A stretch of 6,718 bases of DNA from an uncultured archaeon. GTDB taxonomy: Archaea > Asgardarchaeota > Jordiarchaeia > Jordiarchaeales > Jordiarchaeaceae. The notes below the pieces were generated by a model. The model ran no database searches and had not been told where the DNA came from. It worked only from the letters and a program-made list of their open reading frames with translations. The stretch is taken from NCBI GenBank assembly GCA_964510585.1, contig CAZECW010000077.1, positions 1-6,718 of the forward strand. The letters are read 5' to 3'. The translations under genes were made by a program, and so were the position numbers. Positions 100 to 887 of this stretch are shown here, in pieces (the stretch's first letter is position 1; every line of letters begins with the position of its first letter).

Positions 100-230
100 G
101 GATTGTTTCTTCCTCTGTGTTGGTAGCTATATTTGGGTGCAGGTGCCTTAATAGAGTTTTTGGGCGGCTTAAACCGCAAGAAACATACCAAAAACGCAAA
201 AATACTCAATTGTGCAACACAGCAATTGAA

Positions 231-246
231 AAGAAATGTTTATATT
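231..246 (+). promoter_or_regulatory. Archaeal promoter (purine-rich BRE plus TATA box) for the SRP RNA gene
   Basis: The purine run AAGAAA (231-236) precedes TTTATA (239-244), which ends about 26 nt before the first paired base of the SRP RNA (270). This fits archaeal TATA-to-start spacing. Confidence 0.6.
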
Positions 247-269
247 TTTGGTAAGAGTGTTCATTAGAT

Positions 270-634
270 GGTGGCAAGTCTAGGCGGAGCGGCTAGGGGT
301 CGCCTGAGAGAGGTTTTCCTCTCGACCGCAAATCCTCTTTAAGGCGGGCCGAAAGCTGATGCGAGGCTTATCCTAACCGCTAAAACGGTCTATCACTAAG
401 GCAGTGAAGATCCGCACTGGAGGACCGGCGGTGGATGGCGGCTTTCCGTAGGGAAAGTTGGTTCATCCTTCGTCGGAGGAACCGGTTAGGCCCGGGAGAG
501 TGTGAGTATAGTGATACTTACGCCTTGAAGGAGCAGCCTAACTCTGGACGTCCGGTGCTTCCAGTATCCCGGATTGGAGACCAGGTGTTAGATACGTTAG
601 CGGGGCGATTTGACGAGCATCAGGACTTGCCACC
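270..634 (+). ncRNA. ffs: Archaeal signal recognition particle RNA (7S/SRP RNA), apparently intron-containing
   Basis: Manual fold. Helix 1: GGTGGCAAGTC 270-280 / GACTTGCCACC 624-634. Alu domain: helix 2 GGC 283-285 / GCC 348-350, helix 3 GCGGC 289-293 / GTCGC 299-303, helix 4 CCGC 326-329 / GCGG 344-347, with complementary loops AGGG 295-298 / TCCT 333-336. Helix 5: CTGATGC 356-362 / GCATCAG 617-623, CCGCTAA 377-383 / TTAGCGG 597-603, ACTGGAGG 416-423 / CTTCCAGT 558-565, ACCGG 424-428 / CCGGT 552-556. Helix 6: CGGCTTTCC-GTAG-GGAAAGTTG 439-460 with the GNAR tetraloop. Helix 8: SRP54-binding halves GGTTAGGCCC 484-493 and GGAGCAGCC 530-538. Confidence 0.95.
499..529 (+). other. Putative 31-nt BHB-type intron in SRP RNA helix 8
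   Basis: Central helix CGGG 493-496 / CTTG 524-527, bulges AGA 497-499 and AAG 528-530, and intron stem GTGTGAGTAT 500-509 / ATACTTACGC 514-523. Joining 498 to 530 gives TTAGG-CCC-GGGA-GGG-AGCAGCC, the canonical helix 8. Confidence 0.8.
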
Positions 635-655
635 TAAAATCCTTATTAGGTTTTA
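635..655 (+). terminator. Possible terminator or 3' trailer hairpin after the SRP RNA
   Basis: TAAAA-T-CCT-TATT-AGG-TTTTA can pair over 8 bp with one bulge and contains a T4 run. A further T5 run lies at 676-680. Archaeal terminators are usually oligo-T, so this is only suggestive. Confidence 0.3.
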
Positions 656-887
656 AAAAGGCTGTATGAAACCCCTTTTTCATGTCGCGCGTCATACAAA
701 TTTTTGCCCGCACTACTTCGGCTTCCCAATTAATTAGTTTTTTTGCCCTTTTGAGTAGGTGTAATTAGTATTCTTTATCTTTGTCACCTTGCCTTGGGCA
801 TTTGAGTGTACTAGGGGAACCTTGAACTCGTTCCCTATTTTGTTATATTTTAGGTATATGATGAGGAAAGTCGAGAGTTAACGTTAG

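Follow-up and report, generated by a model that had tools for sequence, protein, structure and literature searches.

A small bulge-helix-bulge intron at the helix-8 tip of a collinear SRP RNA gene in a Jordarchaeia archaeon

The question raised by this locus is whether the RNA of the signal recognition particle (SRP) can carry an internal intron of the kind that is removed from archaeal pre-tRNAs. The window, meaning the whole stretch of 6,718 nucleotides that was analysed, comes from an uncultured archaeon of the Asgardarchaeota (GCA_964510585.1, contig CAZECW010000077.1), and a first-pass annotation made from its letters had described an SRP RNA in which the two halves of helix 8 are separated by an insert folding as a bulge-helix-bulge (BHB) motif. 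The identity of the host RNA was established with the Rfam covariance model RF01857 (Archaea_SRP), which scored 131 bits against a gathering threshold of 96.5 (E = 1.5e-30) in a collinear, full-length alignment of model positions 1-317 with window positions 272-632 of the forward strand. A search of the 3.78-Mb, 96%-complete genome with the same model returned 272-632 as the sole SRP RNA locus, and the alignment places a 33-nt insertion in the loop of helix 8, where the model expects 2 nt. The SRP54 motif of helix 8 (the AGG / GGAGCA symmetric loop) and the helix-6 GNAR tetraloop, described in the literature quoted as the SRP19 contact and the partner of the helix-8 loop, are both present, and the columns of the symmetric loop (UAGG/AGCA) are invariant or near-invariant across the alignment of relatives (17 distinct sequences). 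What is missing from the gene is the GNRA tetraloop that closes helix 8, which is formed solely by the joining of 498 to 530 (CCC-GGGA-GGG) that is seen in RNA contigs. Since both the Rfam alignment (1-317) and the RNA contigs are collinear, the gene is outside the permuted SRP class of the Thermoproteus type, though its motif works like the Thermoproteus BHB. The features of the locus, all on the forward strand, are as follows.

239-246, forward strand: TATA-like box TTTATATT, 26 nt 5' of the SRP RNA start, read from the sequence; a putative promoter element, from archaeal promoter spacing.
272-632, forward strand: collinear SRP (7S) RNA gene of 361 nt, or 330 nt after splicing, from RF01857; the RNA contigs end at 632.
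272-498, forward strand: exon 1, with the Alu domain, helices 5 and 6 and the 5' strand of helix 8 through GGGAG, from the RNA contigs.
308-323, forward strand: hairpin GAGAGG-UUUU-CCUCUC in the helix 3/helix 4 linker, retained in the mature RNA and not an intron.
448-451, forward strand: helix-6 GNAR tetraloop (GUAG), from the sequence and the Rfam alignment.
487-490, forward strand: 5' half (UAGG) of the SRP54-binding symmetric loop of helix 8, partner of AGCA at 532-535, from the Rfam alignment.
493-496, forward strand: exon strand (CGGG) of the central BHB helix, pairing with 524-527.
497-499, forward strand: bulge 1 (AGA), with the 5' splice site at 498/499; the RNA joint leaves after 498.
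499-529, forward strand: BHB intron of 31 nt, skipped in three RNA runs and present in the DNA of 9 of the 9 class members with an SRP RNA match.
500-523, forward strand: intron hairpin, a 10-bp stem (500-509/514-523) with the loop AGUG, of which the three bulge-adjacent pairs covary.
524-527, forward strand: CUUG, the intron side of the central BHB helix, replaced in relatives by CUCG, CCUG or CCCG with the pairing kept.
528-530, forward strand: bulge 2 (AAG), with the 3' splice site at 529/530; the RNA joint re-enters at 530, and relatives have AAG, AUG or ACG.
530-632, forward strand: exon 2, with the 3' strand of helix 8 (GGAGCA...), the 3' strand of helix 5 and helix 1, from the RNA contigs.

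The insert has the canonical strand layout of a pre-tRNA-intron BHB: outer helix, 4-nt central strand, 3-nt bulge, outer helix. The two halves of helix 8 (GGTTAGGCCC at 484-493 and GGAGCAGCC at 530-538) lie exactly where the first-pass annotation had put them, and its coordinates for the central helix, the bulges, the 10-bp stem and the AGUG loop proved equally right when checked against the sequence. The central helix consists of 4 bp, two of them G.U (C493-G527, G494.U526, G495.U525 and G496-C524), and 97% of its cells are paired in the 17 sequences. Bulge 1 is AGA in every one of these, a constancy to be read in the light of the fact that 16 of the 17 were chosen by a pattern that demands AGA. 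On the exon side, the outer helix is a single Watson-Crick pair (C492-G531) beside the non-canonical symmetric loop; it would have 2 bp with the pairs of the mature RNA formed, bulge 2 being then 2 nt long. The 71-nt region folds with z = -3.5 relative to shuffles; its minimum-free-energy fold is not the BHB, the intron stem gaining three pairs instead, through A497-U525, and the nearest-neighbour energies are -26.5 kcal/mol for this non-BHB fold and -11.1 kcal/mol for the BHB. Thermodynamic folding was set aside as a test of the BHB, since the energy model penalises 3-nt bulges and mis-pairs the symmetric loop of the SRP RNA.

The direct evidence on the fate of the insert comes from sequencing runs. 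DNA runs from hot-spring metagenomes contain the entire unspliced stretch, and six microbial-mat metatranscriptome runs contain about half of its words. Assembled contigs of the RNA runs X15, X17 and X20 were placed on window positions 200-700, and one contig from each run links 498 directly to 530, omitting the 31 nt of 499-529. Because no letters fit both sides of this joint (there is no microhomology), its position is unambiguous. The spliced contigs have depths of 91, 8.3 and 51 in the three runs, and cover 278-498, 292-498 and 317-498 of exon 1 and 530-632, 530-626 and 530-617 of exon 2; the longest spans 278-632, and none extends beyond 632, the gene end predicted by Rfam. Confinement of the contigs to the gene fits an abundant small RNA, not carried-over DNA. 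These contigs give neither the unspliced fraction nor the RNA ends, and, being assembled from 31-letter words, they are of a kind in which a 31-nt circle cannot appear. A further RNA run available as raw reads (X21) has zero reads on the stretch and hence carries no weight, while the intron-dependent words of 470-559, of which only 4 were sampled, are contained in about 20 DNA runs and in no RNA run listed, a sample too small to count for or against splicing. The joint falls precisely at the cuts predicted beforehand by the first-pass annotation (498/499 and 529/530, removing 31 nt), the junction that it had proposed to look for in RNA data is the one found in the metatranscriptome contigs of X15, X17 and X20, and the spliced sequence has the CCC-GGGA-GGG tip that it had foreseen, as in the uninterrupted helix 8 of relatives. 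We therefore regard the observation of an interrupted SRP RNA with a BHB motif as confirmed, and its interpretation as tRNA-type splicing is supported by the precise RNA joint together with the conserved BHB and the covarying stems of relatives interrupted at the same site.

It might be argued that nothing was spliced, and that the contigs come from a co-occurring strain without the insert in its DNA, or from DNA contaminating the RNA libraries. Such contamination can occur, and the contigs differ from the window at three positions (T316C and two in the 3' part), so that they do not come from this exact genome. However, the SRP RNA gene of genome G001, a member of the same genus, matches that of the window except at 316 and 551, contains the identical intron at the DNA level and shares T316C with the contigs, which indicates that the RNA came from a near-identical relative with the intron in its DNA; the source is such a relative and not this exact strain, and the three mat samples may share one campaign. 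The insert is carried by 9 of the 9 DNA assemblies of the class in which an SRP RNA was matched, G001 included, the contigs, though deep, go no further than the gene, behaviour expected of an abundant small RNA but not of genomic DNA, and a DNA deletion exactly at the BHB cut sites would be a coincidence. An insert-free source of the contigs is, in our judgement, very improbable.

Splicing of the SRP RNA at a BHB raises the question of the enzymes, and the genome encodes two EndA paralogs:

EndA alpha (catalytic), contig C157, 192 aa: best solved match 3p1z_B, the EndA alpha of Aeropyrum pernix (E = 2.8e-45).
EndA beta (structural), contig C126, 198 aa: Thr in place of the catalytic His.

The alpha subunit retains Tyr, His and Lys, with its His aligned to the residue mutated in 3ajv, and carries 9 residues more than its paralog at the position of L1, the Crenarchaea-specific loop. 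As judged from the genome sequence, the pair is thus of the (alpha-beta)2 architecture with the L1 loop, a two-subunit enzyme with the broad-specificity loop; the first-pass annotation had proposed that the subunit type be identified. This architecture has been assigned to Asgard and TACK archaea and linked to broad specificity (Kaneta et al. 2018, PMC5829648). RtcB is encoded on contig C58 (578 bits), and SRP19 is also encoded. The rtcB gene holds an in-frame TGA inside a 30-nt insert (L087:1561-1590, G000 contig C58) between LPD and AHQGYGFPIGG; this insert folds as a BHB with the helix CCCG/CGGG and the bulges ACA and AAG, and its removal by the cut rule gives back the motif PD/AHQGYG (here and below, a slash within a sequence marks a cut or a joint). 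The rtcB mRNA itself seems to need BHB splicing, and because of the in-frame TGA the function of the ligase is only presumed. Few tRNA genes were detected in this 96%-complete genome, only 7 by ARAGORN and 7 by RF00005, with lengths of 93-107 nt for 6 of the 7 RF00005 matches; the majority of the tRNA genes must carry interruptions that hide them from standard tools. Introns have been reported in 92-95% of the tRNA genes of Freyarchaeia and Atabeyarchaeia (PMC11291895), and the tRNAs detected here agree with this.

The closest known system is the SRP RNA of Thermoproteus tenax, whose gene is permuted, with a BHB arising between leader and trailer (Plagens et al. 2015, eLife, PMC4731332); this BHB was cut in vitro by the recombinant heterotetrameric EndA of T. 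tenax (PMC4731332). The unligated S-domain construct used for T. tenax starts with GGAGCACCC and ends with GGTCCGGGAG (PMC4731332, supplementary oligonucleotide table), and therefore the T. tenax junction is CCGGGAG/GGAGCA, the same as that of 498 with 530 in the window. The BHB substrate reads CCCG-AA/G-GAGC on the leader side and CCGGG-AG/A on the trailer side (PMC4731332). The permuted SRP RNAs of T. tenax and T. uzoniensis thus share with the present gene the host RNA, the site at the helix-8 tip and the ligation junction; the T. tenax BHB further has the same bulges, AGA and AAG, with a CGGG/CCCG helix as in the introns of relatives of the window, and the EndA is heterotetrameric in both organisms. 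In contrast, T. tenax has a permuted gene, a BHB made by leader and trailer and a circular product without helix 1, whereas the gene in the window is collinear, with helix 1 present, a small internal intron and a presumably linear product. The first-pass annotation had cautioned that the outer helix is weak, and on the exon side C492-G531 is indeed the only pair; the worry that followed from it is eased because the equivalent T. tenax substrate, with the same exon-side sequence, was cut by EndA. The BHB described here is a relaxed form, like that substrate.

A weak exon-side helix for a textbook BHB is also what could be said for removal of the insert by a route other than EndA and RtcB, either another endonuclease and ligase or self-cleavage. 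Against such a route stand cut sites in full accord with the EndA rule, the in vitro cleavage of the same BHB sequence by T. tenax EndA (PMC4731332), a genome with the broad-specificity type of EndA, and an insert whose 31 nt fall far short of a group I or group II ribozyme. We consider excision by other means extremely unlikely, and return to splicing by EndA and RtcB. The present intron resembles the BHB introns of archaeal pre-tRNAs, among which are introns at non-canonical sites in Thermoproteales and in Asgard archaea, in its motif, its small size, the rule by which it is cut and the enzymes presumed to act on it, but the host is not a tRNA and offers no tRNA body for the enzyme to measure. 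The same endonuclease/ligase system has other substrates than tRNA, namely the BHB intron of the cbf5 pre-mRNA in Crenarchaeota and the BHB stems of 16S and 23S rRNA. These differ from the present case in being other RNAs, and the rRNA motifs free whole molecules, not an internal piece of a small structured RNA. As for novelty, about which the first-pass annotation had expressed doubt, no description of an intron within a collinear SRP RNA gene was found in the full-text literature searched, in which few subscription-journal papers were included, and Plagens et al. (2015) had already hypothesised an ancestral form of this kind. What appears to be new is a BHB intron in this host RNA, with the joint seen in RNA; BHB splicing and the permuted SRP case of T. 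tenax are known.

The gene holds a second hairpin that is not part of the usual fold. In the helix 3/helix 4 linker the window reads CCUG-A[hairpin]G-ACCGC, while relatives read CCUG-UA-ACCGC, a 16-nt hairpin (308-323) thus lying in a normally short linker. The RNA contigs of X15 and X17 pass through it without a joint, and so it is retained. Hairpins that covary are found at the same spot of the linker in Jordarchaeia, in G018 and in many genomes labelled Bathyarchaeia. A second intron at 306-325 was considered and ruled out, as there is no 4-bp helix with bulges and the segment is retained in the RNA contigs; the 21-nt "helix-3 loop insertion" given by cmscan is this hairpin, misaligned.

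Comparison with relatives allows the geometry of the insert to be weighed independently of the RNA. The class of the window (Jordarchaeia/Freyarchaeia) was represented by 11 genomes, 9 of them with an SRP RNA match, and an insert at the same point occurs in all 9. Matches of the pattern scan within the genus and class of the window include Candidatus Freyarchaeota (among them the closed chromosome CP147778.1), Candidatus Jordarchaeum and Jordarchaeia. In all, an insert at this site was found in 20 genomes, 9 in the class and about 10 outside it, the latter being the following.

G036, G045 and G053: Baldrarchaeota-type.
G050 and G058: "Promethearchaeota H2M".
G152, G154, G171 and G183: labelled as, or related to, Bathyarchaeia.
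G151: labelled Thermoprotei.
G153: unclassified archaeon.

These are submitter labels, which are not always reliable: G009, labelled Thermoproteota, falls in the class of the window. The introns at this site are 17-39 nt long, with the bulges AGA and A-N-G (AAA in one), and the template AGGCC-CGGG-AG/A-hairpin-NNNG-AN/G-GAGCA fits every interrupted gene except that of G183, which has exon variants at two positions (AGGCU, and AAA as bulge 2). Uninterrupted relatives read AGGCCCGGGAGGGAGCA, identical to the predicted and observed spliced product, and this identity of the uninterrupted with the spliced tip holds in G014, G016, G030, G040, G111 and many others. Among 17 distinct interrupted SRP RNAs, 92.5% of the cells of the BHB pairs are standard pairs and 22 cells are changed on both sides; the covariation score is 0.418, compared with 0.173 for shuffles (0 of 500 as high) and at most 0.152 for controls with slid partners. 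The three intron-stem pairs next to the bulges occur as GC, CG, UA and AU, with changes on both sides in all three. The comparison that the first-pass annotation had suggested as a check therefore gave inserts at the same site in relatives, a conserved BHB geometry and covarying stems. The pattern also has 11 matches in bacterial genomes, which were taken as chance matches and used as a negative control; they pair at only about half of these positions.

These comparisons bear on the possibility that the 31 nt simply lengthen helix 8 in this lineage and are kept in the functional mature SRP RNA. SRP RNAs do bear lineage-specific hairpins, the hairpin at 308-323 of the same gene is retained, and the minimum-free-energy fold described above is a continuous extended hairpin. 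However, the contigs of three RNA runs show only the form without 499-529, and the insert destroys the GNRA tetraloop. What relatives keep is, moreover, the BHB geometry and not an extended helix: 497:525, the middle one of the three pairs added in the alternative fold, is an A.C mismatch in 11 of the 17, whereas the BHB helix is kept and becomes a perfect CGGG/CCCG. We give a retained extension next to no chance of being correct. Just as negligible is the idea that the skip is an artefact of a reverse transcriptase or an assembler crossing a stable structure, for although the skipped part holds a 10-bp hairpin and reverse transcriptases can skip such structures, the joint has no microhomology, is the same in three runs and dominant at depths up to 91, extends beyond the hairpin (500-523) to the positions of the BHB rule, and other stable hairpins (308-323, helix 6) were not skipped.

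The reading that we prefer, and hold to be very probable, is that this collinear SRP RNA carries a 31-nt BHB intron within the GNRA tetraloop of helix 8, which is cut by EndA and joined by RtcB before the SRP is assembled. In the precursor, C493-G496 of the exon would pair with C524-G527 of the intron, setting the AGA and AAG bulges of 3 nt on opposite strands, backed by the 10-bp intron hairpin. The two-subunit EndA (alpha and beta, with the L1 loop) would then cut after the second base of each bulge, at 498/499 and 529/530, and RtcB would join the exons into CCC-GGGA-GGG, restoring the 3-bp stem and the tetraloop needed by SRP19 and by the helix-6 loop, with the intron leaving probably as a circle. 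The motif, its conservation and covariation, the exact excision in RNA and the genes for the enzymes are observed, whereas we infer that EndA of this organism does the cutting, that RtcB does the joining and that the intron is freed as a circle. Since the tetraloop for SRP19 and helix 6 would arise only after splicing, splicing would have to precede SRP assembly; the precursor most likely cannot assemble, splicing would gate SRP biogenesis, and we infer that the unspliced RNA is inactive.

The distribution of the site is uneven. Every Baldrarchaeota genome examined has it, and in Jordarchaeia/Freyarchaeia it is likewise fixed; in relatives labelled Bathyarchaeia it is sporadic, being present in 4 of about 26 examined. 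Among G151 and its relatives, almost all without an insert, only G151 has the intron, and its insert looks sporadic. The SRP RNAs of two of these relatives, G193 (L137) and G199 (L135), are of unusual length, 364 and 366 nt, and G193 has a duplicated CCCGGGAGG motif flanking an insert of about 25 nt near the helix-8 tip.

A separate observation concerns the first 65 nt or so of the SRP RNA in two other Asgard families, where a BHB-like insert lies in the loop of helix 3. It was seen at the loci L019 (G040), L020, L022, L050 and L051, and at L016 (G031), L018 and L045, and has the form GGCU-AG/A-stem-GGCU/GGCC-AA/G in one family (GGCU and GGCC being alternatives) and CUAG-GG/A-stem-CUAG-AA/C in the other; cutting by the BHB rule gives back the consensus helix 3. 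Asgard SRP RNA would therefore have at least two putative intron sites.

As to origin, the introns of different lineages share nothing beyond what the pairing with the exon demands, and the exon supplies CGGG and AG on one side and G on the other, that is, half of a BHB. A search of the genome for further copies of the intron (blastn-short) gave only chance 11-12-mers, and therefore there is no sign of recent transposition. Introns unique to each lineage, the lack of genomic copies and an exon that provides half of the BHB together suggest that a permissive site acquiring introns again and again is no less likely than a single old acquisition with many later losses. A simple BHB intron has been hypothesised as the ancestor of the permuted SRP gene (Plagens 2015, PMC4731332). 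We put forward tentatively, as an idea that may well prove wrong, that the intron at the helix-8 tip represents the collinear ancestor of the permuted Thermoproteus gene, at a site, ancient or re-invaded, that is shared by Asgard and TACK-labelled archaea, and that splicing there is an obligatory checkpoint. The first part of this proposal is made because the junction, the bulges and the central helix are common with Thermoproteus, and the second because the intron replaces the tetraloop that is read by SRP19.

With RNA-level evidence behind it, the internal intron of this collinear SRP RNA represents a further class of substrate for the tRNA-splicing system of archaea, and the gene has the form that Plagens et al. 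proposed as the origin of permuted SRP RNA genes. For annotation, it means that SRP RNA models under-score such genes and misplace insertions in them. The half-BHB provided by the helix-8 tip may explain why introns recur there, and makes this a tractable case for the study of intron gain in archaea. A ribonucleoprotein that is both essential and universal seems to rely on EndA and RtcB in Jordarchaeia/Freyarchaeia and Baldrarchaeota, in the same genomes in which nearly all tRNA genes are interrupted and apparently some mRNAs as well, including that of rtcB. If splicing at the helix-8 tip is indeed such a checkpoint at a shared site, the archaea most closely related to eukaryotes would couple assembly of their protein-targeting machine to their machinery for tRNA splicing.
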